36,252 nt of DNA, taken from positions 1-36,252 of the IMG/VR virus record IMGVR_UViG_3300016656_000168. One strand, given 5' to 3'. Source of the stretch: a virus (lineage: Duplodnaviria; Caudoviricetes). Below, one piece after another: positions 8,901-28,037 of the stretch (position 1 is its first letter; each line of letters opens with the position of its first letter). Under the pieces are notes generated by a model. The model did no database searches. It saw only the letters and a list, made by a program, of their open reading frames with translations, and was not told the DNA's origin. The position numbers and the translations under genes were made by a program.

Positions 8901-9103
8901 CCTGGGGTCACGGCGACCTGCGCTGGTTCGACAACCTCTCCCCCGACGACAAGGCCCTCGTGATGGCGTTCGACACCCTCCAGCGCGAAGGCCGCTCCGG
9001 GAAGGCCAACACGCCCCCGGGCGCCGCCGTCCGCCTGCCGGCCGCCTTCGAGGCTGCCCGGCGCCGGCGCGACGCGGAGCGTGCACGGGGGGGCGCCTCG
9101 TGA
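8843..9103 (+). CDS. Tail chaperone -1 frameshift extension (gpT-like)
   Basis: The -1 frame is open from GGATTTC (8843-8849) to the TGA at 9103 (LDLLALRLSLTWGHGDLRWFDNLSPDD...) and has no good independent start. Confidence 0.65.
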   Translation, partial: GFLRGRRGGLDLLALRLSLTWGHGDLRWFDNLSPDDKALVMAFDTLQREGRSGKANTPPGAAVRLPAAFEAARRRRDAERARGGAS

Positions 9104-9702
9104 GCCAGACGGTCTTCCGGGACGGGGACGTGACGGTCACGCTCACCTCGGACCTCGAGGCGATGGTGCGCCGGCTGGCGGACCAGGCGGCGGGGGGGAT
9201 CGTCTCCGTCCTCGAGGCGCACGCCGACGAGGTGGTGGCGAAGGCCCGGGCCGACTGGTACGGCCCGGGCGGGGTGGAGCGCGAGACGGGGCGGTCCGGG
9301 GACATCGTCCGTCGCACCACCATCTCCGAGCGAGAGGTCCGGGTCGGCGTGGTGAGCACCGACACCCGCGCCGCCGGGAAGAGCGGCAAGCTCGTGCCCC
9401 TGTACGTGCACCGCCCCGGCCGGCTGTCCACCGAGGTCCGCGAGATCACCCAGGCCGAGTACTACGAGGCCAAGCGGACCGGCACGGGCGCGGCGCTCGT
9501 CTTCCACGCGAAGCGCTCCTCCGCCGGCAAGGGGGTGGAGGCGGGCAAGTACTACCGGGTGGTGGCGAGCGAGCGGGCCAGCGACGGCCGGTACCTCGTG
9601 CCGCTGCTCCTCACCGGCCCCGTGAAGGCGAAGGTGAAGGTGCTCCTCCCCGAGCTCCACGCCCGCATCGTGGCGCGGATGAACGGAGGCGCCGGTGGCT
9701 GA
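9100..9702 (+). CDS. HK97 gp10-like neck or tail completion protein
   Basis: Pattern ADEVVAKARADW...VERETGRS...VRVGV with a C-terminal helix resembles the HK97 gp10 family. Confidence 0.55.
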   Translation: MSQTVFRDGDVTVTLTSDLEAMVRRLADQAAGGIVSVLEAHADEVVAKARADWYGPGGVERETGRSGDIVRRTTISEREVRVGVVSTDTRAAGKSGKLVPLYVHRPGRLSTEVREITQAEYYEAKRTGTGAALVFHAKRSSAGKGVEAGKYYRVVASERASDGRYLVPLLLTGPVKAKVKVLLPELHARIVARMNGGAGG

Positions 9703-11626
9703 ACAGGTCGGGATCGACATCGCCGCGCGCCTGGACAACTTCCGCGCCGAGCTGGCGAAGATCCCCGAGATCGGGGGCAAGGAGGCGAAGGCTCTTGCCG
9801 GCCAGCTCTCGCGCGAGATCCGCCAGGCCGAGCAGGCCGCGCGCCGGGCGGGCGGAGCCGCGAAGGACGCCGCCGGCGGGTACCGGGTGCTGGGCGACGC
9901 GGCGGGCAAGGCCGGCCAGTCGGGCGCGAAGCTCGCCGGCATCCTCGACGCGACGCTGGGGCCCGCGGCGGCCAACGCCTCCCGGTTCGTGAACGACCTG
10001 TTCGACGCCGTCGAGGTCGGGGCGCTCGCGGGCGAGTCCGCCGGCATCTCGCTGGCGACGCTGGGCACGGCGGCGGCGACGCTCACCGCGGCGGTGGGCG
10101 CCGGGTACCTCGCGTGGCGGAGCTACAACGAGGAGTCCGAGCGGGCGACGCTCATCGCTGGCGAGGTAGAGGCGGCGCAGAAGGCGATCGAGCCGCTCCT
10201 CCGCGACACCGCGGACGCGACGCTGGACCTGGCGGTGGCGACCGGGCTCATCACCGAAGCCCAGGCCGACCTCGAGCGCAACGCGGACCGCGCGTACCGC
10301 ACCTGGTCGGACGCTACCACCGAGACCCGGGACCGGCTGAACGAGGTGCGCGAGGCCTCCGCCGCCGTCTCCACCCAGCTCGTGGACAACAGCGAGGACT
10401 TCCGCGGGACGGGCCTCGCGGGCTGGTTCCTCTCCCAGGCGATCGACGGTCTCACGACCTCCTCGTCCGAGTACGCGGCCGAGGCCACCGCCCTGCAGGG
10501 CGCCCTGGACGACACAGTGAAGGTCCTCCGCGAGAACGTGGAGGTGACCGGGGAGGTCATCACCCTCGAGGACGAGGCGAAGCGGAAGAAGGAGGCCCTC
10601 ACCGCGGCGCTCAAGCGGCAGGCGGAGGCGGAGCGGATGGTCCGCGAGGCCCAGGCGGACGCGGACCGGCAGCGCGCCGCGTACAGCGCCGGGCTGGCCG
10701 AGGACGAGCGGCTCATCCTCGGCAACGTTGCCGCGCTCGACCAGCTCCACGAGAAGATCGTGGCGCTCGACGACACCCAGGAGGAGGCCGCCCGGCGCGA
10801 GGCGGCGCGCCTGCAGGCCGAGCTGGAGATGCGGGTGGCCAACGCCGAGGCGGCGGGCATGTCCACCCAGAAGTACGCCGAGGACGAGGCGGCGATCGCC
10901 ACCTGGCTCTCGGGCGAGCTCGCGAAGATCCGGGAGAAGGAGACCGCCGAGAAGGCCAAGGCGCGCGAGCTGGAGCTCAAGGCGAACGCGGAGACCTGGA
11001 CCCGGAGCGCCGAGCTGGCCAGCCAGGCCGCGGGCGCGGTGGGCGACGCCTTCGGCGCCATGCTGGACCGGCGGCTCACCATCCTGAACCGGCTCGAGAC
11101 CTACGCCCAGGAGTCCGAGGCCTTCCTCACCGAGGGGCAGAAGGCGGAGCTCGAGAAGCGCATCAAGCTCCAGCGGGACGCGGCGCTGCGGACCTTCGCC
11201 ATCCAGAAGGGCGCGGCGCTCGCCGAGGCGGCGGTCAACACCGCCTCCGCCGTCGTCGAGGCCCTCCCCAACATCCCCCTCTCGCTGGTCGTCGGGGGCC
11301 TCGGCGCCGCCCAACTGATCGCCATCGGCGCCGAGACGCCCTCCTTCCACGGCGGCGCCGGCCCCGACGAGGTGAACGCCACCCTCCTCCGCAACGAGGC
11401 GGTGCTCAACAGCCGGGCCACCGCCCAGCTCGGGGAGGAGGCGATCCGCGACATGAACGCCGGGGCACCCGCCGCCGCCGCGGGCGGGGACGTGTACCTC
11501 ATCAACCGGTACCGCCACCGGGACCTCGACGTGGTGATGGCCGACGCCTACGCGGCCGGCGGACGCTTCTCCACGCGGCTCCGGAACGACACCCAGTCCT
11601 GGCCCACCGGGTGGAGGCGCGGGTAG
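9695..11626 (+). CDS. Tape measure protein
   Basis: 643 aa, Ala-rich and helical, downstream of the chaperone, with the typical TMP C-terminal motif FHGG..PDEVNATLLRNEAVLN. Confidence 0.88.
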   Translation: MAEQVGIDIAARLDNFRAELAKIPEIGGKEAKALAGQLSREIRQAEQAARRAGGAAKDAAGGYRVLGDAAGKAGQSGAKLAGILDATLGPAAANASRFVNDLFDAVEVGALAGESAGISLATLGTAAATLTAAVGAGYLAWRSYNEESERATLIAGEVEAAQKAIEPLLRDTADATLDLAVATGLITEAQADLERNADRAYRTWSDATTETRDRLNEVREASAAVSTQLVDNSEDFRGTGLAGWFLSQAIDGLTTSSSEYAAEATALQGALDDTVKVLRENVEVTGEVITLEDEAKRKKEALTAALKRQAEAERMVREAQADADRQRAAYSAGLAEDERLILGNVAALDQLHEKIVALDDTQEEAARREAARLQAELEMRVANAEAAGMSTQKYAEDEAAIATWLSGELAKIREKETAEKAKARELELKANAETWTRSAELASQAAGAVGDAFGAMLDRRLTILNRLETYAQESEAFLTEGQKAELEKRIKLQRDAALRTFAIQKGAALAEAAVNTASAVVEALPNIPLSLVVGGLGAAQLIAIGAETPSFHGGAGPDEVNATLLRNEAVLNSRATAQLGEEAIRDMNAGAPAAAAGGDVYLINRYRHRDLDVVMADAYAAGGRFSTRLRNDTQSWPTGWRRG

Positions 11627-14854: not shown

Positions 14855-16671
14855 TGGCCCGCGACGTCCTCACCGCCGCCGACCAGCCCGTGCGCTGGCT
14901 GCTCGAGGTCCGCTGGGGCGGCGGGCTCATCCGCGTCTCGGACGCCGAGGTGGACGTGACCCGCGAGAACGGCGAGGTCCTCCACTTCGCCGACGCCTTC
15001 GCCGAGCTCCCCGAGACCGAGGAGGCGGTGGAGTTCATGGCCGGCAACGCGGGCCAGCTCTCCGTGCCCATCCGGGCGTTCTTCGACGTCGAGGGGACCA
15101 CGGTGGCCCAGCTCGTGGCCGAGGGCCACGCGCTCGCGGGCGCGCGCGCCGAGCTGGCCCGCTGGGTCGAGGGGACCACCTGGGAGGAGCGGCGCCCGGT
15201 CGTCGTCGGGACCATCTCCGACCCCGAGTGGGGGGACGAGGCCGACCCTGTCGGGTTCTCCATCGAGACCCGCCTCACCGAGGAGGCCGGCCTCACGCAC
15301 GCGCCGAGCTGGCGGGTGGACGGCTACACGTGGGCGCACGCCGACTCGCTCCTCGTCGAGCACCTCGGCGTCCCGTACCCGATCGTCTTCGGCCGGCCCG
15401 GGCGCCTCACCGGCGGTGCGGGCCGCCTGCCCACCCTGCCCAGCTTCGCCAGCGTCGACCTCAACGCCTGGATCCCCGGCTCCGTCGCCGTGTGGGTCGA
15501 CCGGCGCGACACCGACCCGGGGGGCTCGCATCCCGTCACCGAGTGCCGGTGCGTCGTCTCCTACGGCCACGTCACGGCGACCCGGGTGTACCTGTGCACC
15601 GAGGACTACCCCGAGGGGTACCGCTTCGAGGTGCGGACGGGGTTCGATGAGCTGGGCCAGCCCGTCTCGTTCATCCCGTGGTTCACCGTCGCCGGCCCGG
15701 CCGGCGCACCGGAAGACGACTACGACGGCGCGTACACCTACAGCTACGCCGGCACCGACACCGACCTCGTCGACTACTACGCGTTGGGGAACCCGTCGCT
15801 GGACGGCTCCTTCAACCAGAACGGGGACACGGTCCAGAACCGCCTCTACGTGGGGTGGCTGGACCCGGAGACCGATGGCGGGGGCATCACCGTGGACGGG
15901 GAGGAGGTCCGCACCGCGGACCAGGTCCTGGAGCTGGTGCTCGGCTTCACCGGCCTCGAGCTGGACCGGGGCCGCATCGCGGCCACCCGCCCGGCGCTGG
16001 CCTCCTTCGAGCTCGCCGGCGTCATCGAGCGGCGCGTGCGCCCCTGGGACTGGGTGCGGAACAACCTGCTCCCCCTGGTGCCGGTCTCGGTGGACACCGG
16101 GCCCCAGGGCCTCTTCTGGCACGTGTGGCGGGGCGACCTCACCGCCACGGACGCCGTCCTCGTCATCGACGCCGACTCCGACCCCGACGTGGAGCGGTCG
16201 TCTTCCATGGTCGAGGACAGCAGCCAGGTCGTGAACCGGATCACCCTCCAGTACGCGATCTCCCGGATGAAGGGCACCCACGTGGGGAGCGTGACCCTCG
16301 GCGCCGACGAGGACCTCGTGGAGGACTCGGACATCATCCGGTCGCACCCGGCGTGCACCACGTCCCGCGCCCGGTTCGGGGTACGGGAGCTCACCCTCGA
16401 GACCGCCATCGTCTACTCGGACGAGACCGCCTGGCGGGTGCTCGAGGCACTCGCCGAGCTCCGCGCGGTGCCCTGGCCGGTGGTCTCGTACGACGTCCCC
16501 GAGGCCCGCTACATCCGGGCCCGCCGGTGCCTCCCCGTCGCCGTCCAGGACAGCGCCATGGCGCTCTCCGCCCGGCCGGGCGTCCTCCTCGGCATCCGCA
16601 CCCGCGGGGACGGCCTCCTCACCCTCACCGTCGCCCTGCGCCCCGCGCTGCGGAAGGCGGTGCGGTCGTGA
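14854..16671 (+). CDS. Tail tip or baseplate hub protein
   Basis: About 605 aa, GTG overlapping the upstream TAG. Motifs GVPYPIVFG, VVNRITLQY and SRARFGVRELTLE are typical of tail tip proteins. Confidence 0.72.
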   Translation: MARDVLTAADQPVRWLLEVRWGGGLIRVSDAEVDVTRENGEVLHFADAFAELPETEEAVEFMAGNAGQLSVPIRAFFDVEGTTVAQLVAEGHALAGARAELARWVEGTTWEERRPVVVGTISDPEWGDEADPVGFSIETRLTEEAGLTHAPSWRVDGYTWAHADSLLVEHLGVPYPIVFGRPGRLTGGAGRLPTLPSFASVDLNAWIPGSVAVWVDRRDTDPGGSHPVTECRCVVSYGHVTATRVYLCTEDYPEGYRFEVRTGFDELGQPVSFIPWFTVAGPAGAPEDDYDGAYTYSYAGTDTDLVDYYALGNPSLDGSFNQNGDTVQNRLYVGWLDPETDGGGITVDGEEVRTADQVLELVLGFTGLELDRGRIAATRPALASFELAGVIERRVRPWDWVRNNLLPLVPVSVDTGPQGLFWHVWRGDLTATDAVLVIDADSDPDVERSSSMVEDSSQVVNRITLQYAISRMKGTHVGSVTLGADEDLVEDSDIIRSHPACTTSRARFGVRELTLETAIVYSDETAWRVLEALAELRAVPWPVVSYDVPEARYIRARRCLPVAVQDSAMALSARPGVLLGIRTRGDGLLTLTVALRPALRKAVRS

Positions 16672-17564: not shown

Positions 17565-18527
17565 ATGCCCACCCGCTACTGGACCGGCTACCAGGCCATC
17601 GCCTCCGCGGACGCCGCGGGGATCATGGCCGCGCTCGCCGCGGCGTTCGCGGTCACCACCGACCCGCTGTCCTCGGAGACCATCTCGGCGCTCACCTGGA
17701 CGCGGGACACCACCGCCGGGTCGGAGAGCATCTACTCCTCCGCCTTCGGCCCGCGGAACTGGCGCATCATCATCGCGGTGCACAACGCCAGCACCCCGTC
17801 GCCGTCCCCCACGATGGTGGGCACGGCCGACACCTACACCGCCGCGAACATCCTGATCGGCCTCTGCATCAACGCCAGCGGGGCCTACGCGGGCTGGAAC
17901 CAGGCCGCGCCCTTCTCCGGGTGCTCCTTCGCCGGGTACTACCGGTTCGCCCCGTCCGCCGCCGCGGTGAAGCTCGCGTGCATCGTCTCGGCGAAGGACC
18001 TGGAGATCGAGTACCAGACCTCCACCGCGGTCTACCACACCCACTTCGGCGCCATCCTGACCGCCCCCACCTCGCCGAGCGGGTATGCCGAGAGCGACGG
18101 TTACCGGTACGGCGGGATGGTGTCGGGGGCCTCGGGGGACATGGGCTCGACCTGGCGCACGAACACGGCGCCGAACGGCACCTCGCTGGGGTGGAACTAC
18201 ACCACCAACGGGATCAACCACGCCGGCATCTACGCCGTGGGCGGGACGACGTGGCAGCCGATCTCGCCGATGCACGCCATGGCCCAGACGCCCGACGCGG
18301 ACCAGTGCCTGATGGACGGCACCTACCACGGTGCCGCTGGCATCGCGTTCACCCGCTACGCCGCCCCCCGCTACGCGCTCGGAACCTGGTCCGGGGTGGT
18401 GGAGAGCCCCACCGGCCGGACCGGACAGGCCGTGGTGAGCCCCCCGTCCACCCACGTCGGGGTCCGCATCTCCAGCGGCGGTGACGCCGCCACGGAGCAG
18501 GCCGTCGTCTTCCGGAGGACCTACTGA
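17565..18527 (+). CDS. Putative tail fibre or receptor-binding-associated protein
   Basis: 320 aa rich in Thr/Ser/Gly/Tyr, at the end of the tail module. Confidence 0.6.
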   Translation: MPTRYWTGYQAIASADAAGIMAALAAAFAVTTDPLSSETISALTWTRDTTAGSESIYSSAFGPRNWRIIIAVHNASTPSPSPTMVGTADTYTAANILIGLCINASGAYAGWNQAAPFSGCSFAGYYRFAPSAAAVKLACIVSAKDLEIEYQTSTAVYHTHFGAILTAPTSPSGYAESDGYRYGGMVSGASGDMGSTWRTNTAPNGTSLGWNYTTNGINHAGIYAVGGTTWQPISPMHAMAQTPDADQCLMDGTYHGAAGIAFTRYAAPRYALGTWSGVVESPTGRTGQAVVSPPSTHVGVRISSGGDAATEQAVVFRRTY

Positions 18528-18733
18528 TGTTCGCCTCGTCCATCCTCGCCTGCGCCGAGGCCTTCGGCGACGTGACCGAGATCCAGGCCCCCACCGGCCA
18601 GGCCACCGCCGTCGCCGGCGAGCTCGAGGCGGCCGAGCGCGCCGACCTCGCCGCGCTGGTGGTGGAGGGGGCCGAGGCCCACCGCATGATCGTCGTCGCC
18701 GGCGGCGTCCCCTGGCCGTTCGGAGGGTACTGA
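18527..18733 (+). CDS. Hypothetical protein
   Basis: 68 aa, TGATG-coupled on both sides. Confidence 0.65.
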   Translation: MFASSILACAEAFGDVTEIQAPTGQATAVAGELEAAERADLAALVVEGAEAHRMIVVAGGVPWPFGGY

Positions 18734-19041
18734 TGCCCGAGAAGACCCCGAGCTGGCTGCAGCGGAGCATCACGGTCTCCATCCCGGCCGCGGCCCTCAT
18801 CGGCCTCGTCACCGTCCTCCTCGGCGGCGGCGCCTCGGCCGCCGGGGGCATCGTCACCCGGGACGGGGACCTGGACACCCTGCGCGAGGACGTGGCCGCC
18901 ATCGTGGCCGACGTCCGCGCCGAGCAGGACCGCCGCCTCACCGACCACGCCGCGGTGGAGGGGAAGGCGATCGAGGCCCTGGAGAAGCGCCTCGACCGCA
19001 TCGAGGCGAAGCTGGACCGCCTCCTCGAGGACCGGCGATGA
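18733..19041 (+). CDS. Membrane-anchored coiled-coil protein (lysis cassette)
   Basis: N-terminal TM (IPAAALIGLVTVLLGG) and C-terminal LEKRLDRIEAKLDRLLE; GGAG RBS. Confidence 0.68.
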   Translation: MPEKTPSWLQRSITVSIPAAALIGLVTVLLGGGASAAGGIVTRDGDLDTLREDVAAIVADVRAEQDRRLTDHAAVEGKAIEALEKRLDRIEAKLDRLLEDRR

Positions 19042-19367
19042 GCGCGCTCGAGGGGGCGAAGCGGGCGGCGGGGGCGACCGTGCGGGCCGGCCGGTGGGTC
19101 ATCGGCGACGACTCCGGGGCCCGGCCGTCCCGGAAGCTCCAGGCCCTCCGGTGGTACACCGTCGCCGTTCTGGTCGCCGTCGGAGGCGGGCACCTCCTGG
19201 AGCTGGACGAGGACCTCGTCCGCCTGGTGGTGGAGAAGCTCACCTGGGCCCTCGGGCTCACGGTCGGCGCCAACGCCCTGGGCGACCACGCCGCCGGCGC
19301 CGTCGCGAAGGTGGGCGAGGCTATCACCGAGATCGTCGCCGGCGGGCGGCGGGGGAGGGGGGAGTGA
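19038..19367 (+). CDS. Putative holin-like membrane protein
   Basis: 109 aa with two hydrophobic segments, shortly upstream of the endolysin. Confidence 0.55.
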   Translation: MSALEGAKRAAGATVRAGRWVIGDDSGARPSRKLQALRWYTVAVLVAVGGGHLLELDEDLVRLVVEKLTWALGLTVGANALGDHAAGAVAKVGEAITEIVAGGRRGRGE

Positions 19368-19552
19368 ATCTGCGCCCGGACTGGTCCAAGATCCCAGAGG
19401 TCACCGCCGTTCAGGCGAAGGCGATGGCCGAGCGCCTCGGGAAGGAAATCCGCGAGGCAGAGCAGCGCGCCCGCCGCGCCGAGGAGAAGCGCGCTCGGCG
19501 CCGTGCCCGCCGTCACGCGGTTCCTGGGCGCATCTGCCGGGGGCGGCCGTGA
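19364..19552 (+). CDS. Small protein homologous to the TMP N-terminus
   Basis: 62 aa, GTGA-coupled at both ends, strong GGAG RBS. Residues 2-39 match TMP residues 15-52 at 21/38 identity without gaps. Confidence 0.75.
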   Translation: MNLRPDWSKIPEVTAVQAKAMAERLGKEIREAEQRARRAEEKRARRRARRHAVPGRICRGRP

Positions 19553-20028
19553 GCGCCATCATCTGGCCCGAGCTCGCCCTCGACGACCCGCGGGTGGTGC
19601 GCACGCTCCGCCGCTGGGGCCACCCCTACGGCTGGGCGAAGGGCTCGCCCGCGACGGCGCTCCTCCCCGGCTCGGACCGGGACGACTCCGACTGCAGCGG
19701 CGAGGCCCAGGAGGTCCTCGTGGAGGCCGGCGAGCTCGACGCCGGGGAGCCGGACCGCAACAGCCGCGGCCTCGCGATGATCTGCGACCCCGTCGCCGAG
19801 GGGGACGAGCAGCCCTTCAACCTGGCCTTCTACGGGGAGGACAACCGCATCACCCACGTCATGGTCGTGGTGGGACGGAACGCCGTCCTGGGCGCCTCGG
19901 GCGGCCGGAGCACCACGCACGGGGACGACCCCCGGGCCTTCGTCCAGCTCCACCGCCTCCACTACCGCCCGGACCTCGTGTGCCTGGGCCGCATCAAGGC
20001 CGAGCACCGGCCCCGGAGCACCTCGTGA
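19549..20028 (+). CDS. NlpC/P60-family peptidoglycan hydrolase (endolysin candidate)
   Basis: GHPYGW...DCSG catalytic Cys motif and ITHVMVVVG catalytic His; next to membrane genes. Confidence 0.85.
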   Translation: MSAIIWPELALDDPRVVRTLRRWGHPYGWAKGSPATALLPGSDRDDSDCSGEAQEVLVEAGELDAGEPDRNSRGLAMICDPVAEGDEQPFNLAFYGEDNRITHVMVVVGRNAVLGASGGRSTTHGDDPRAFVQLHRLHYRPDLVCLGRIKAEHRPRSTS

Positions 20029-20366
20029 ACCTCGCCGCCCTGCCCCTCCTCTACATCGCCGCCCTCGGCCGCCGCGGCGCCCTCGCCGAGCTCCAGGCCA
20101 CCATCGCCGCGGCCGTGGCGGGCGGGGTCACCCGGGACGAGGCCGTGGACGTCGTCGCCGAGCTGCTCGACTTCCTCACGCCGATCGAGGACCTGCTCCC
20201 CGGCCACGTCGGCAAGCTTGCCGAGGAGGCCGTGGACGAGGCGATCGAGCGGACCGCGGCGCGCCTCGTGGACCTGGTGTTCCCGGACCCCGCGAAGGCC
20301 GAGGCCCGGCTCACCCGGCAGCGCCAGCGCCAGGCCCGGCGAGCGGCGCGACGGAAGGCGGCGTGA
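20025..20366 (+). CDS. Hypothetical protein
   Basis: 113 aa from GTG, GTGA overlaps at both ends, strong codon bias. Confidence 0.65.
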   Translation: MNLAALPLLYIAALGRRGALAELQATIAAAVAGGVTRDEAVDVVAELLDFLTPIEDLLPGHVGKLAEEAVDEAIERTAARLVDLVFPDPAKAEARLTRQRQRQARRAARRKAA

Positions 20367-20569
20367 CCCGCGCCCTTGTCACCGCGGACCTGCGCGAGGC
20401 GCGGAGGCTGGTCACCGCCGGCGCCCGCATCGCCGCCCGGGTCAAGCACGCCGCCCACCGCCGTGCCCGCCGCGCCCTACGTGACTGGCTCGCGCGAGGC
20501 CGCCGGGACCCCGACGTCTACGACACGCCGCCCACGCCTCGCCCCGGCAGCGGATGGGACGTCGCGTGA
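20363..20569 (+). CDS. Hypothetical Arg-rich protein
   Basis: 68 aa, GTGA-coupled. Confidence 0.55.
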   Translation: MTRALVTADLREARRLVTAGARIAARVKHAAHRRARRALRDWLARGRRDPDVYDTPPTPRPGSGWDVA

Positions 20570-20670
20570 CCTCCCTCCTCCACCACCTCGCCCACGCCCT
20601 CGCGGTGGTGGGCGTCTACGTCGCCGTCCTGGGGCTCGTGCTCCGGCGGCGCTTCACCACCAGGACCTGA
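20566..20670 (+). CDS. Small single-TM protein (34 aa)
   Basis: MTSLLHHLAHALAVVGVYVAVLGLVLRRRFTTRT; GTGA-coupled; not in the ORF track. Confidence 0.55.
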   Translation: MTSLLHHLAHALAVVGVYVAVLGLVLRRRFTTRT

Positions 20671-20676
20671 CCCCCC

Positions 20677-21351
20677 ATGCCCTCCCCGATGCCCTCCCGC
20701 CTCTCCCCCCCGATCTTCCTCGCCCTCCTCGCCACCCTCGGCATCGGCGGCGCCGCCGGCGGCCGCTACCTCGCCACCCGCCCGACCGGGCCCGAGCTCG
20801 AGCCGACCGCGCCCACCGTGGACCTCGCGCCGGTGGCCCCGGCGGTGGACCCGGCCCCGGTGGTGCCCGTGGAGCCCGCGCCGGTCGTCGCCACGGCCGA
20901 GGTCGCCTACACCGGCCACGAGTGCGACGCGGCGCGGGAGACCTACTGCGCCGGGCTCAAGGGCAAGTGGGCCGACGTCTCCGCGTGGTGCGAGGCGCAG
21001 AAGGCGGAGTGGGTCGCCTCGGGCGCCGTCACCGCCATCAACCCCTGCGCGAACCAGAAGTACGCGACGGACTCCTGCGTGGAGTGGGCCGCCGCGACGA
21101 AGCCGGTGGACCCGGCGTGCCCCGCGTACATGGACGCGATCAACGACGCGAACGACGCGCTCAACGCCGCCTGCCGCTACACCACCCGCAAGGGCGGCGT
21201 GTGCGAGGGCGTCATCCCGAAGCCCGCCGACCCGACGGCCCCGGTCAAGGTCGTGCCGCTGGACGACTGCCTCGAGGAGCACCGCGCCGAGCTCTCGGCC
21301 GAGTGCCAGAAGGCGATGGACGTGAAGGCGAGCGTCATCCACACGCGGTAG
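20677..21351 (+). CDS. Membrane-anchored Cys-rich protein
   Basis: N-terminal TM, Pro/Val linker and 10 Cys. The C-terminal AC...C.GV.P...CLEEH...LS.EC resembles the GLG1-type Cys-rich repeat. Confidence 0.72.
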   Translation: MPSPMPSRLSPPIFLALLATLGIGGAAGGRYLATRPTGPELEPTAPTVDLAPVAPAVDPAPVVPVEPAPVVATAEVAYTGHECDAARETYCAGLKGKWADVSAWCEAQKAEWVASGAVTAINPCANQKYATDSCVEWAAATKPVDPACPAYMDAINDANDALNAACRYTTRKGGVCEGVIPKPADPTAPVKVVPLDDCLEEHRAELSAECQKAMDVKASVIHTR

Positions 21352-23120: not shown

Positions 23121-23536
23121 GCCGGAGGCCCCCACACCGCGGCCCAGAGGCGCGCCCACCACGGCTTCGGGCGGACGCGCTTCGGCGGGCGGACGCGCAT
23201 GGGGGTCCAGAACGGGCATCCGGTGACCCCCGGGATGCTCGTGCCGCGCCACCTCGCGGCCTCCTCCGTGGCGTCGAGGCGGTGGTCGCGCCCGTTGTCG
23301 CGCTGGAGCGGGGTGCGGTAGCGGGCGATGCCGAGGGCGCTGCTTCCCGTGGGAGGCGTTGGCGGCCACGGCGCGCAGGAGGGCCTCGCGCCGGGTCCCG
23401 TCGGACTCTTCCCCGCGTGCAACGCGAACCACTCGCCGGCGGGGATCGGCCAGCCGCGGTTCTCCACGCGCTTGTCGAGGTGGTGGATCGCCCACGCCCA
23501 CTCGGGCCACAGGGTCAAGGCGCGAAGGTCAGCCAC
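23117..23536 (-). CDS. ASCH-domain protein, apparently chimeric or truncated
   Basis: ALTLWPEWAWAI...KRVENRGW...FALHAGK is an ASCH N-terminal signature. It is followed by a 67-bp copy of ParB gene DNA read out of frame. Confidence 0.65.
   Translation of the reverse strand: MADLRALTLWPEWAWAIHHLDKRVENRGWPIPAGEWFALHAGKSPTGPGARPSCAPWPPTPPTGSSALGIARYRTPLQRDNGRDHRLDATEEAARWRGTSIPGVTGCPFWTPMRVRPPKRVRPKPWWARLWAAVWGPPA
23337..23403. repeat. 67-bp exact direct repeat, copy 1
   Basis: Identical to 25402-25468. Confidence 0.95.
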
Positions 23537-24119: not shown

Positions 24120-26147
<2,028 letters not shown>

Positions 26148-26151
<4 letters not shown>

Positions 26152-28037
26152 GGCTGGAGCCCCTCCTCCACCACGAGGGCCACCCGGTTCCCCAGGGGGA
26201 GCAGCACGTCCTCCGGCGCATCCTGCTCGAGGAGCACGCGGACCCGGCCGGTGTCGTCCAGCCGCGCCCGGACGACCCGCAGCCGCGGCGCCTCCGCGGG
26301 CACCCGCAGGCGCTCCCGGATGGACCGGATCACCTGGGCCCGGGTGCCGGGCGCCAGATCCTCCACCGCGTCCCGGTCGACCTTGAGCAGCTCGCCCTCC
26401 AGCGCGTAGTCCACGGAGAGGAGCTCGCGGTGCGCCGCCTCGAGGGCGGCGGGCTTCTGGAGCTGGACGAGGCGCTCGACCTCGGCGTGGACGTCGGCGA
26501 CGGGAATGGGAAACGGAAGGCCGAGGGTCTCGGCCATGCGAGAGAAGGCGGCCTGGAGCCGGGCGATGTCGTGCACCACCAGCCACCGAATGCGCTGGGC
26601 CGGCGTGCCCGACTCTGCCCCGCGCACCTCGTCCAGCACCGTGTGGGCGTCCTGGCAGAGCTGCGCGAGGTGGGCGGCCTCCTCCCGCTCGGCGAGCCAC
26701 GCGGAGGTGGCGTACCGGATGCGCTGGGCGGGGGTGTCGAGGTCAGGCGCGGCGCTGCAGGGGAGGGCGTCGAGGGCCTCGTTCGCGAGGTCGAGCGAGA
26801 CCTGCATGGCGTCGCGCTCGCGCCGCAGCTGTTCCTTCTTCTCCGCCAGCGTCTTCACGTCCTCGACGAGGAACTCGAGGGGGAAGAGCTCGGGGAGACC
26901 GAGCGTCCCGGCCAGGACCTCGGTATGGCGATCGTGCTCGTAGACCTGCCGCTGCAGCTTCCGCACCGCGTCCACGACCTCGGCGTCCGAGCCGTCGGGG
27001 TCGCAGCCCAGGAGGCCGCGGAGGGTCTGGAGGGGGGTGTCGGCCTCGACGTCGGCCCGGCGGATCTCGCGCGAGAGCTGGGCGGTGAGGGCCTTGGCCT
27101 CCCCGGCGCCGATCTTCTCCGCCGTCTTCGCCCGCCGGATCTCCGCGCCCACCCGGGCCGCCTGCTGTGCGCGGGTGGCGCGGCCGCCCACCCGCTCCTC
27201 GAAGGCGGCGATGAGGACGGGGAGCAGCGCGGTCCGCTGGCCGTCGCTGGCGCGGGCCCAGTCGTCCTGGCGCGGCCGGAGGCGCCCCCAGTGCCGGTGG
27301 CACATCTCGTGCCGGGCCACCCTGCCCTCGCATCCCGGCCACCGGCAGGCCGTCGCCAGCGTGCCCGTGGCCCGCCGTCCCCCGTTCCGGCGGCGGGCGC
27401 GGCTGGGGTCCGCCTGGATGCGCTGCGCCCACTGGCGGCCGAGCAGCTCGGCGTCCAGGTCGCCGGCGCCGATGGGGAAGTCGGGGAGCTTCTTCGCGCG
27501 GCTCCAGCACGTGTCGCAGACGTTGCGATGGCTCCTCGCGTTCTTGCAGGCGGGGACGGCGCACAGGCCGGCCCTTCGACGCGGTGTGGACATGGGGACC
27601 TCGGTGGGGGTGTGGGTGTCGGTGTCCGCGATGGCGCCCCCCGCCGCCGGAAGCGGGGCGGGGGGCGCGACAGTCAGGGCATCCGGCACCTCGGTGGGCG
27701 TCGGGAGAGGGGACCGGACCACGCGCAGCGCCGGGGGGGAACGGCGCTCGGTGGCTCTCGCCGCCGGCACGGCGGCCCGCTCCGGCGGGGGGACCGGCCG
27801 CGGGCGAGGACGGGGGGCAGGGGGCGCCCCCGCGTGGAGGTGGCGGAGCGGGCGCGCCCGGTCCTGCTCGATCGGGGCGGCGACGACGGGGCGGGCCTCG
27901 GTCCAGTCCACGAGCTCGCCGGCGTCGGCGAGGACGCGGTGGTGGAGCTCGCACAGTTCGAGCCGCCCGGCCTCCCGCGTGTGGTAGGAGCCCATCGGGG
28001 CGTGGGGGCAGCCGCGGGCGGCGCAGGCGAGGCTCAT
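26148..28037 (-). CDS. Mosaic Zn-finger and coiled-coil protein containing a TMP-like segment
   Basis: Three CxxxxC...CxxH/C motifs, a Pro-rich linker, repeats TPAQRIR and TLGLP, and IGAGEAKALTAQLSREIRRAD. A possible internal ATG lies at 27593. Confidence 0.75.

Follow-up and report, generated by a model that had tools for sequence, protein, structure and literature searches.

The stretch of DNA analysed here, referred to as the window, is a complete IMG/VR virus record of 36,252 bases with a G+C content of 73.6%. Genes for a large terminase and an integrase are present, and the window belongs to an uncultured temperate phage, whose capsid-to-tail block is located on the plus strand. Neither the window DNA nor the tape measure protein (TMP) encoded in it gave a match to cultured phages; the terminase could be aligned with 14 records of cultured phages, mostly Arthrobacter phages, at around 24–30% identity. 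Searches of the window for Rfam families and tRNA genes returned no matches. The late operon of this phage contains a small gene, here termed the mini-gene, which is located directly before the gene for a lysin (Table 1). A gene of 62 aa is also called at 19364–19552 in a public protein collection.

Table 1. Coordinates of the genes and sequence features discussed in the text. Positions refer to the window, except in the last row, where they refer to the related locus L014.
Feature	Position	Strand	Description and basis
Candidate tail completion protein gene	9100..9702	+	200 aa; directly upstream of the TMP gene; synteny, structural model and weak fold match
TMP gene	9695..11626	+	643 aa; named from its place between G/GT-like chaperone frames and the gene for a 1075-aa tail protein, from its size and from its helical make-up
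TMP residues 15–52	9737..9850	+	Segment copied by the mini-gene; BLASTP, six-frame search and nucleotide comparison
Upstream gene	19038..19367	+	109 aa, weakly hydrophobic; stop codon overlaps the mini-gene start
Shine-Dalgarno-like run CGGGGGAGGGGGGA	19350..19363	+	Within the 3' end of the upstream gene; sequence
Presence/absence stretch	19360..19549	+	190 bases, replaced by 8 other letters in X4 record 16
Mini-gene	19364..19552	+	62 aa and stop codon; residues 2–42, copy of the N-terminal loop and helix of the TMP; residues 43–62, Arg-rich tail
Lysin gene, probable NlpC/P60-type peptidase	19549..20028	+	Homologues with PF00877; start codon overlaps the mini-gene stop
629-aa gene	26148..28037	-	Cys/His-rich N-terminal motifs; part of the leftward block of genes, at the end of which the integrase is encoded
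Third motif copy KIGAGEAKALTAQLSREIRRAD	27052..27115	-	Residues ~299–335 of the 629-aa early-region protein (P0025)
Extra motif copy in L014	15441–16100		N-terminal ~70 residues of a 220-aa protein; iE 2e-9

The mini-gene is tightly fitted between its two neighbours. Its GTG start codon forms a GTGA overlap (19364–19367) with the stop codon of the upstream gene, and its TGA stop codon overlaps the GTG start codon of the lysin gene in a second GTGA (19549–19552). A purine-rich site of the GGAGG type, GGGAGGGGGGAG, is located immediately 5' of the mini-gene, the start codon of which comes right after the purine-rich run, and we infer from its sequence that this run works as a ribosome binding site. 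The purine-rich run, taken as a strong ribosome binding site in the original prediction, and the coupling on both sides described there were found at the expected places. No promoter-like sites were detected within 17–22 kb, and the search for terminator-like sites in the same interval returned one weak site on the minus strand, compared with 0.7 expected. Ribosomes must pass the mini-gene to reach the lysin gene. The mini-gene is likely to be translated, since synthesis of the lysin would require ribosomes either to read through the mini-gene or to re-initiate after it, and since the purine-rich run now precedes the mini-gene while the lysin start follows the mini-gene stop. The product would be strongly basic, with 19 Lys and Arg compared with 8 Asp and Glu residues. 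Arg-rich stretches as strong as its tail (9 Arg in 23 residues) are found in 4.8% of the six-frame windows of this DNA, and searches for the origin of the tail gave neither a DNA match nor an off-frame match.

The original prediction had placed the mini-gene between a holin-like gene and the endolysin. The downstream half of this description is supported, as the neighbouring gene probably encodes an NlpC/P60-type lysin; the upstream half needs to be qualified, because the adjoining 109-aa protein has no strong membrane segment (maximum hydropathy over 19 residues, 1.35), and the clear single-pass membrane protein is encoded one gene further upstream (18733–19041; hydropathy 2.2). Searches of Pfam, PHROG and PADLOC assigned no family to the adjoining protein. 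The lysin, which is likely to be the endolysin of this phage, has no Pfam match itself; however, its homologues P0021 and P0022 (64–66% identity) carry PF00877 (NlpC/P60), and the DCSG and ITHVM columns are invariant in all nine aligned sequences. It also shows a weak match to a PHROG of peptidase-bearing minor tail proteins. When collections of viral, genome and metagenome sequences were searched for related loci with the lysin, either as a single protein or as an alignment (A3), nothing usable was returned; there was one match of 19 residues, in locus L003.

The similarity between the mini-gene product and the TMP was confirmed by several approaches. Residues 2–39 of the mini-protein align without gaps to TMP residues 15–52 with 21 of 38 positions identical, a count that was reported in the original prediction and that was reproduced here. 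BLASTP aligned residues 2–34 with the TMP (17/33 identical, 37 bits, E 9e-9), and a six-frame search of the virus record with the mini-gene as query returned 9737–9856 (E 3.8e-9). The Smith-Waterman score of 104 has to be compared with 35 ± 5 (maximum 57) in composition-matched shuffles, and none of 2000 shuffles reached the observed score, so the match withstands this control. Among 375 six-frame ORFs, the TMP ranks best after the mini-gene's own frame. Furthermore, a profile of TMP N-termini, from which the mini-gene had been left out, matches the mini-gene over profile columns 17–56 (hmmsearch iE 1.2e-8). At the DNA level, 74 of 114 nucleotides are identical between the mini-gene and the TMP gene of the same phage, with 25, 29 and 20 of 38 identities at the first, second and third codon positions, respectively. 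On this evidence, the mini-gene is a genuine and statistically solid copy of the N-terminal region of the TMP. The hydrophobic positions of the module (F/L16, L/W20, I23, P24, I/V26, A31, L/M34, L38 and I42) are all either identical or conservatively replaced in the mini-gene, whereas many polar positions differ.

The TMP, whose gene is preceded by two overlapping chaperone-like frames, has no Pfam family, and the window TMP alone as query found no viral locus. A three-row motif profile, compared with 1.84 billion representative proteins at a cut-off of E ≤ 1e-3, gave 78 matches, 64 of which are proteins of at least 500 aa in which the motif begins between residues 12 and 22. Another eight are shorter proteins with the same motif offset that continue like TMP N-termini, some of them on very short contigs, and the remaining six are the mini-gene, the 629-aa protein of the window, P0084 and three seemingly spurious repeat proteins. 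The motif is thus located at around residues 15–54 in 64 long proteins of a large uncultured TMP family, whose members have ~520–860 aa; the mini-gene, with its 62 aa, lacks this context. In an alignment of 61 of these TMPs, the overall identity to the window TMP is 21–37%, and mean column conservation is 0.76 for residues 1–40 compared with 0.25–0.31 for residues 121–480. The glycine of the I26-G27 turn is shared by all of 19 TMPs that were aligned and conserved in at least 90% of the 61, and the window TMP matches its family consensus in the motif. By these alignments, the segment reproduced in the mini-gene belongs to the block that is best conserved in this widespread family of uncultured TMPs. 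The structural genes of 30 related TMP-bearing loci are syntenic with 22–52% identity. Nothing significant was obtained when the motif profile was compared with PDB sequences (best E 0.016 over 14 residues), and the TMP N-terminus folded alone yielded a low pLDDT of 61.6, which allows no more than a rough helix-loop-helix map.

The TMP motif is also present in non-TMP proteins other than the mini-gene. The third copy within the window, which had been noticed in the original prediction, holds up well: 9768–9831 and 27052–27115 form a 64-nt inverted repeat that is 84% complementary and the longest in the window, and the copy lies in a well-supported coding frame on the minus strand (GC3 0.93–1.00). 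It is embedded in the 629-aa protein and shares 15 of 22 residues (E 1e-4) and 54 of 66 nucleotides with the TMP (dN 0.18, dS 0.29), as well as 16 of 25 residues with the family consensus; the mini-gene and the embedded copy are identical at 10 of 24 residues. Judged by its divergence, the embedded copy is much younger than the mini-gene. A TMP-only profile detected one further extra copy, in L014, among the 30 TMP-bearing loci, many of which are redundant or short, and a second motif copy was present in one of the five whole records searched (again L014). The L014 protein (P0115) consists of the motif followed by LLLLALLAGC, a lipobox, and a Cys-rich domain; the stop or start of its gene is coupled to the tail gene before it, and GC3 is 0.85–0.91 in this gene compared with 0.98 in neighbouring genes. 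P0084, a protein of 61 aa encoded on a 23.5-kb contig, combines the motif with an Arg-rich tail like that of the mini-gene. Searches of viral contigs returned no further loci for P0084 and P0115. Additional copies outside the TMP, for which the original prediction had proposed a search of related phage genomes, are thus present in related elements (L014, P0084); an orthologue of the mini-gene was not among them.

All four non-TMP copies are truncated in a similar way. They lack the first ~12–25 residues of the TMP, and the leading segment VVGIDIVARLD (profile columns ~4–15) is mostly or wholly missing; the first matching profile column is 17 in the mini-gene, 13 in P0084, 16 in the L014 copy and 26 in the embedded copy. 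Moreover, the I-G turn is replaced in the three free-standing copies, by V-T in the mini-gene and in L014 and by L-D in P0084. In a tree built from 68 sequences of the motif (45 columns), the mini-gene groups with the copy from L014, a position that carries a long-branch warning, and AU tests reject neither a single clade of the three free copies (p 0.72) nor a grouping of the mini-gene with its own TMP (p 0.62).

A structural role for the copied region is suggested by Staphylococcus phage 80alpha/SaPI1, in which residues 1–37 of the TMP gp56, a strand followed by a helix, bind to the tail completion protein gp51, a monomer, in the neck (PDB 9mu2), and the TMP N-terminus contributes to a bundle of five helices that includes the completion protein (bioRxiv 10.1101/2024.12.10.627806). 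According to the available text of two preprints, including the one just cited, a TMP N-terminus had not been seen in detail together with a completion protein before, and no completion protein was seen there in several other phages. In the window, too, the TMP N-terminus stands out, as conservation within the family is highest there, and the top structural match of the adjacent 200-aa protein is the 80alpha completion protein, albeit a weak one, with which it shows no sequence match. In contrast to the situation in 80alpha, the mini-protein would be a free copy of 62 aa, which lacks the first ~14 residues; these correspond in position to the 80alpha strand.

The adjacent gene (9100–9702) is a candidate for the partner of this region. 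In all TMP-bearing loci that include the DNA upstream, a homologue of this gene reaches exactly to the start of the TMP gene, and the model of the family has a pLDDT of 79.5. The structural search placed 9mu2_P, the 80alpha/SaPI1 tail completion protein, at the top of 48,161 chains; this is a weak match (Z 5.6, rmsd 4.6, 96/109 residues, 16% identity) and the sole one with a Z of at least 5, in a wide search in which Z values under 8 are commonly seen. The Atlas gave a weak lead to PF04883 (HK97 gp10-like) through a cluster in which 37% of the members carry this family; however, none of 19 family members matches the Pfam HMM PF04883 at E ≤ 1, and searches of Pfam, PDB sequences and Foldseek returned no match for the protein. 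The modelled protein thus weakly resembles a tail completion protein, which would make it a candidate partner of the TMP N-terminus. If this assignment holds, the hyper-conserved TMP N-terminus and the product of the neighbouring gene would be the two sides of a tail-completion interface. Complex prediction for this protein (alignment A6) and the mini-protein, run without controls, gave a score of 0.01 compared with a mark of 0.32, which is evidence neither way.

Comparison of public sequencing runs over 18400–20700 revealed that the mini-gene is not a constant part of this region. Six runs were listed, none of them of RNA. The region is unchanged in one run, which comes from the same study as the likely source of the window. 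A contig from a wastewater run (X4 record 16; 287 nt, depth 4) matches 19275–19359 with one difference in 85 positions and 19550–19743 with four differences in 194, and has eight other letters at the site in between. Whichever way they are read, these eight letters maintain the reading frame of the upstream gene as far as the TGA at 19550–19552 and place an ATG or TTG overlapping that TGA, so that the lysin start overlaps the stop codon of the upstream gene there. Because the eight-letter joint preserves both the frame and a start/stop overlap, the lysin is coupled directly to the upstream gene in this relative, and the first ten bases of the purine-rich run (19350–19359) precede the lysin start instead of the mini-gene. 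The mini-gene is an accessory insertion, which is absent from one contig of a near-identical relative (a single contig of 287 nt at depth 4). The site also varies in a third run (X3; ~92% identical upstream), since both contigs that reach it continue unlike the window: record 7 extends 94 letters past 19367, and record 12 covers 173 letters before 19550. Orthologues of the mini-gene were sought among proteins of similar length, where its own cluster was the only hit among 14 candidates, among longer proteins (0 of 649 candidates) and in the Atlas (no usable match). With regard to relatives, the gene is therefore absent from one close relative, and no orthologue was found in the databases searched.

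The base composition of the mini-gene is unusual for this neighbourhood. Its GC3 of 0.825 is the lowest there, compared with 0.96–0.99 in the neighbouring genes, and 10 of its 62 sense codons end in A or T, in agreement with the excess of such codons that had been described before; nevertheless, GC3 is higher and GC2 lower in the mini-gene frame than in either of the other two frames. The odd codon usage fits a gene that arrived as a cassette, and both this feature and the near-identical relative without the gene favour the original view of an acquired gene. Accessory genes inserted in the late operons of temperate phages are known as morons, and the classic ones possess their own promoter and terminator (PMC3594210, as far as the consulted part of that article goes). 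The mini-gene resembles morons in its absence from a near-identical relative, its atypical base composition and its position near lysis genes; however, it has no detectable promoter or terminator of its own and is translationally coupled on both sides.

Taken with the likeness to the TMP, these features are tentatively explained by a translated accessory mimic of the N-terminal loop and helix of the TMP, which would compete for the partner of that module; we give this reading rather less than an even chance. On this view, the insertion of the 62-codon gene in front of the probable NlpC/P60 lysin gene provided the phage with a soluble protein that imitates the TMP loop-and-helix and that would compete at the head-proximal end of the tail. 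By analogy with 80alpha, and in view of the weak resemblance of the neighbouring gene product, we infer that the TMP module serves as an interface for binding. With the hydrophobic positions retained and the first ~14 residues missing, a free copy would occupy part of this interface, or the TMP N-terminal bundle, and competition would be most likely at the bundle of completion protein and TMP. No description of a free-standing mimic of a TMP segment was found in a literature search that was not exhaustive. Few steps in the assembly of siphophages are understood as poorly as tail completion at the head-proximal end, and a natural free copy of a TMP segment would provide a ready-made probe for the completion interface. 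The variation between near-identical phages, together with the recurrence of the motif in other architectures, would offer a testable case of a structural-protein mimic as an accessory gene.

Somewhat unlikely, in our estimate, is that the mini-gene is a recombination relic, i.e., a 5' fragment of the TMP gene of a related phage that ended up behind the ribosome binding site and ahead of the lysin start, that is translated by the way or simply tolerated, and that has no function of its own. The failure to find an orthologue, the near-identical relative without the gene and the lowest GC3 of the neighbourhood would all be expected of a relic. The open frame extends for 272 codons, and since stop codons are rare in DNA of 74% G+C, its integrity proves little. 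The branch of the mini-gene in the motif tree is around four times as long as the median (0.71 compared with 0.19). The pairwise comparison with the TMP over 38 codons (NG86) yielded a dN of 0.376, a dS of 0.879 and a dN/dS of 0.43, and most of the amino-acid changes fall on the mini-gene side, as the TMP matches the family consensus. Because the TMP side is strongly constrained, this ratio leaves room for near-neutral evolution of the mini-gene; selection, for which the original prediction had considered a ratio near 1 as the sign of decay, is thus addressed by a value that is compatible with near-neutral drift of the mini-gene. In a permutation test, agreement between the mini-gene and the family consensus was concentrated in conserved columns (p 0.01), but this result was given no weight, since the same trend would be expected of a neutral relic whichever TMP it came from. 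The nucleotide identity and the dS imply that the mini-gene is not a recent copy of its own TMP, and the near-random third codon positions, compared with the better-kept second positions, indicate that the copy is either old or foreign. It is this divergence that also speaks, though not decisively, against a relic: the third positions are near random, yet the hydrophobic core positions have been kept, either identical or conservatively replaced. Exact four-base stop/start overlaps on both sides, with a start codon right after the purine-rich run, would likewise be surprising for a chance fragment, and independent non-TMP copies with the same truncation pattern are present in two other elements. 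Even a relic would document an unusually conserved N-terminal module of the TMP and a completion-protein-like gene that is syntenic with the TMP gene across a widespread group of uncultured phages.

Unlikely, and clearly more so than a relic, is an anti-defence decoy, the chief proposal of the original prediction, in which the mini-protein would titrate a factor of the host or of a prophage that recognises the TMP N-terminus, thereby sparing the TMP itself. Defences linked to the TMP do exist. Tab, encoded by Pseudomonas phage JBD26, acts on tail assembly via the TMP, and anti-Tab (JBD26 gp30), which is encoded between the terminase genes, binds Tab; the part of the report that was available does not describe anti-Tab as a TMP mimic (PMC10884400). 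SNIPE, a membrane nuclease, associates with TMPs at genome entry and probably binds them (PMC13190303), and since such defences can recognise conserved features of siphophage TMPs, a TMP-derived decoy is conceivable. The copied module is the most conserved one in the family and would be a plausible recognition target, the accessory nature of the gene and its variable site fit counter-defence genes, and with the N-terminal strand and the invariant glycine gone, the mini-protein could be recognised without taking part in assembly. However, as far as the consulted portions of these reports describe, sensitivity to Tab maps to the TMP C-terminus (PMC10884400), and escape from SNIPE maps to TMP residues 100–150 or ~300–400 (PMC13190303), not to the N-terminus. 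The analogy to Tab and anti-Tab drawn in the original prediction is therefore loose: Tab does act through the TMP, and anti-Tab is a small late-operon gene that protects its own phage, but Tab sensitivity resides in the TMP C-terminus and anti-Tab binds Tab, whereas the mini-gene is a TMP copy next to a lysin in a window in which no Tab-like gene was identified. No defence gene was recognised either: PADLOC (2023), which may predate Tab, matched none of 11 window proteins, and NCBIfam gave nothing relevant. Finally, a cytoplasmic product made late would be useless against defences that act at DNA injection.

A self-immunity pair, in which the 629-aa protein, with its embedded TMP-like helix of recent exchange, would block the tail assembly of related phages and the late mini-protein would neutralise the 629-aa protein while the phage itself grows lytically, is very unlikely. 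The same logic is found in Tab and anti-Tab and in Tai and Ati, a prophage pair that targets tail assembly and in which the late-expressed Ati binds Tai; in contrast to the system considered here, the available part of that report places the escape mutations for Tai in the central tail fibre, not in the TMP (PMC11364771). Both genes are present in the same phage, the 629-aa gene in the leftward integrase block and the mini-gene in the late operon, and the embedded copy is close to the TMP DNA and to the family consensus. Its low identity to the mini-gene (given above) is less favourable, and so is the 629-aa protein itself, for which neither a family nor a defence match was obtained and which has no relatives in the 30 TMP-bearing loci. 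At a similarly low level of probability, copies of the TMP N-terminal helix, whether free, membrane-anchored or embedded, might be a recurrent currency of conflict over tail completion, in which the 629-aa blocker would join the TMP/completion-protein bundle of invading phages and the mini-protein would be the antidote. If this reading were true, the two proteins would make up a hitherto undescribed type of defence and immunity pair, based on homotypic mimicry.

In mycobacteriophage Ms6, a small chaperone-like protein is encoded upstream of lysA. That the mini-protein is a comparable lysis helper, which aids the export, timing or activity of the lysin and owes its TMP likeness to historical accident, would fit its position next to the lysin gene, the GTGA coupling and its basic make-up, but is highly improbable, as searches of Pfam, PHROG and NCBIfam revealed no similarity to lysis protein families, and as the lysin evidently does not need the mini-gene, being coupled directly to the upstream gene in the X4 relative.

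The tape measure protein (TMP) N-terminus shows much stronger conservation within its family than the rest of the virion proteins. In the family alignment A4, column conservation is 0.76 across the N-terminal ~50 residues, compared with 0.25-0.31 over TMP residues 121-480, and the consensus of this region is MANxVVGIDIVARLDxFRAELAKIPDIGGKEAKALTAQLSREIK. A similar sequence is found in P0115, which is encoded by the related locus L014 and in which the TMP-N-terminus-like part is followed by a lipobox-like LLLLALLAGC motif and a Cys-rich region. P0115 may be a membrane-anchored form of the mimicry proposed for the 62-aa mini-gene product. The 629-aa early-region protein contains three CxxC...CxxH-like motifs rich in Cys and His, and TPAQRIR-type segments recur in it besides the embedded helix; searches of Pfam, PHROGs, PADLOC and NCBIfam gave no family match.

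Coordinates of the features discussed
Feature	Location	Strand	Remark
200-aa gene, conserved	window 9100-9702	+	homologues in related loci L004-L033
Conserved TMP-family N-terminus	window 9695-9860	+	alignment A4
102-aa protein	window 18733-19041	+	two genes upstream of lysin (probable NlpC/P60-type peptidase)
224-aa protein	window 20677-21351	+	final plus-strand gene before integrase
629-aa early-region protein	window 26148-28037	-	embedded TMP-like helix
P0115, 220-aa accessory protein among tail genes	L014 15441-16100		GC3 below that of neighbours

The 200-aa gene and its homologues lie between the two overlapping G/GT-like chaperone frames and the TMP gene, and their 3' end is always located at the TMP start. 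The top structural match of its predicted model is the tail completion protein of Staphylococcus phage 80alpha (Z 5.6, weak); for a candidate tail-completion-type gene, this position would be unusual.

In the 102-aa protein, the best holin candidate of the lysis cassette, a single strong membrane segment occurs together with an acidic/basic C-terminus that is coiled-coil-like. The 224-aa protein, for which no family was found, has a hydrophobic N-terminal segment and numerous cysteines; in this it resembles the secreted or membrane product of a moron.

Two identical 67-nt segments form a direct repeat, one at 23337-23403, in another frame within a 134-codon ORF, and one at 25402-25468 (spacing 2065 nt), in frame within a 664-aa minus-strand gene, where it encodes ...DGTRREALLRAVAANASHGKQR...; the repeat may have arisen by recent duplication, mark a recombination scar or be an artefact of assembly. 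The same 664-aa gene contains a GTCGGT repeat run (GTCGGTGTCGGTGTCGGTGTCGGTGT) at 25729-25774, which was detected as an inverted-repeat arm against 15729-15786.
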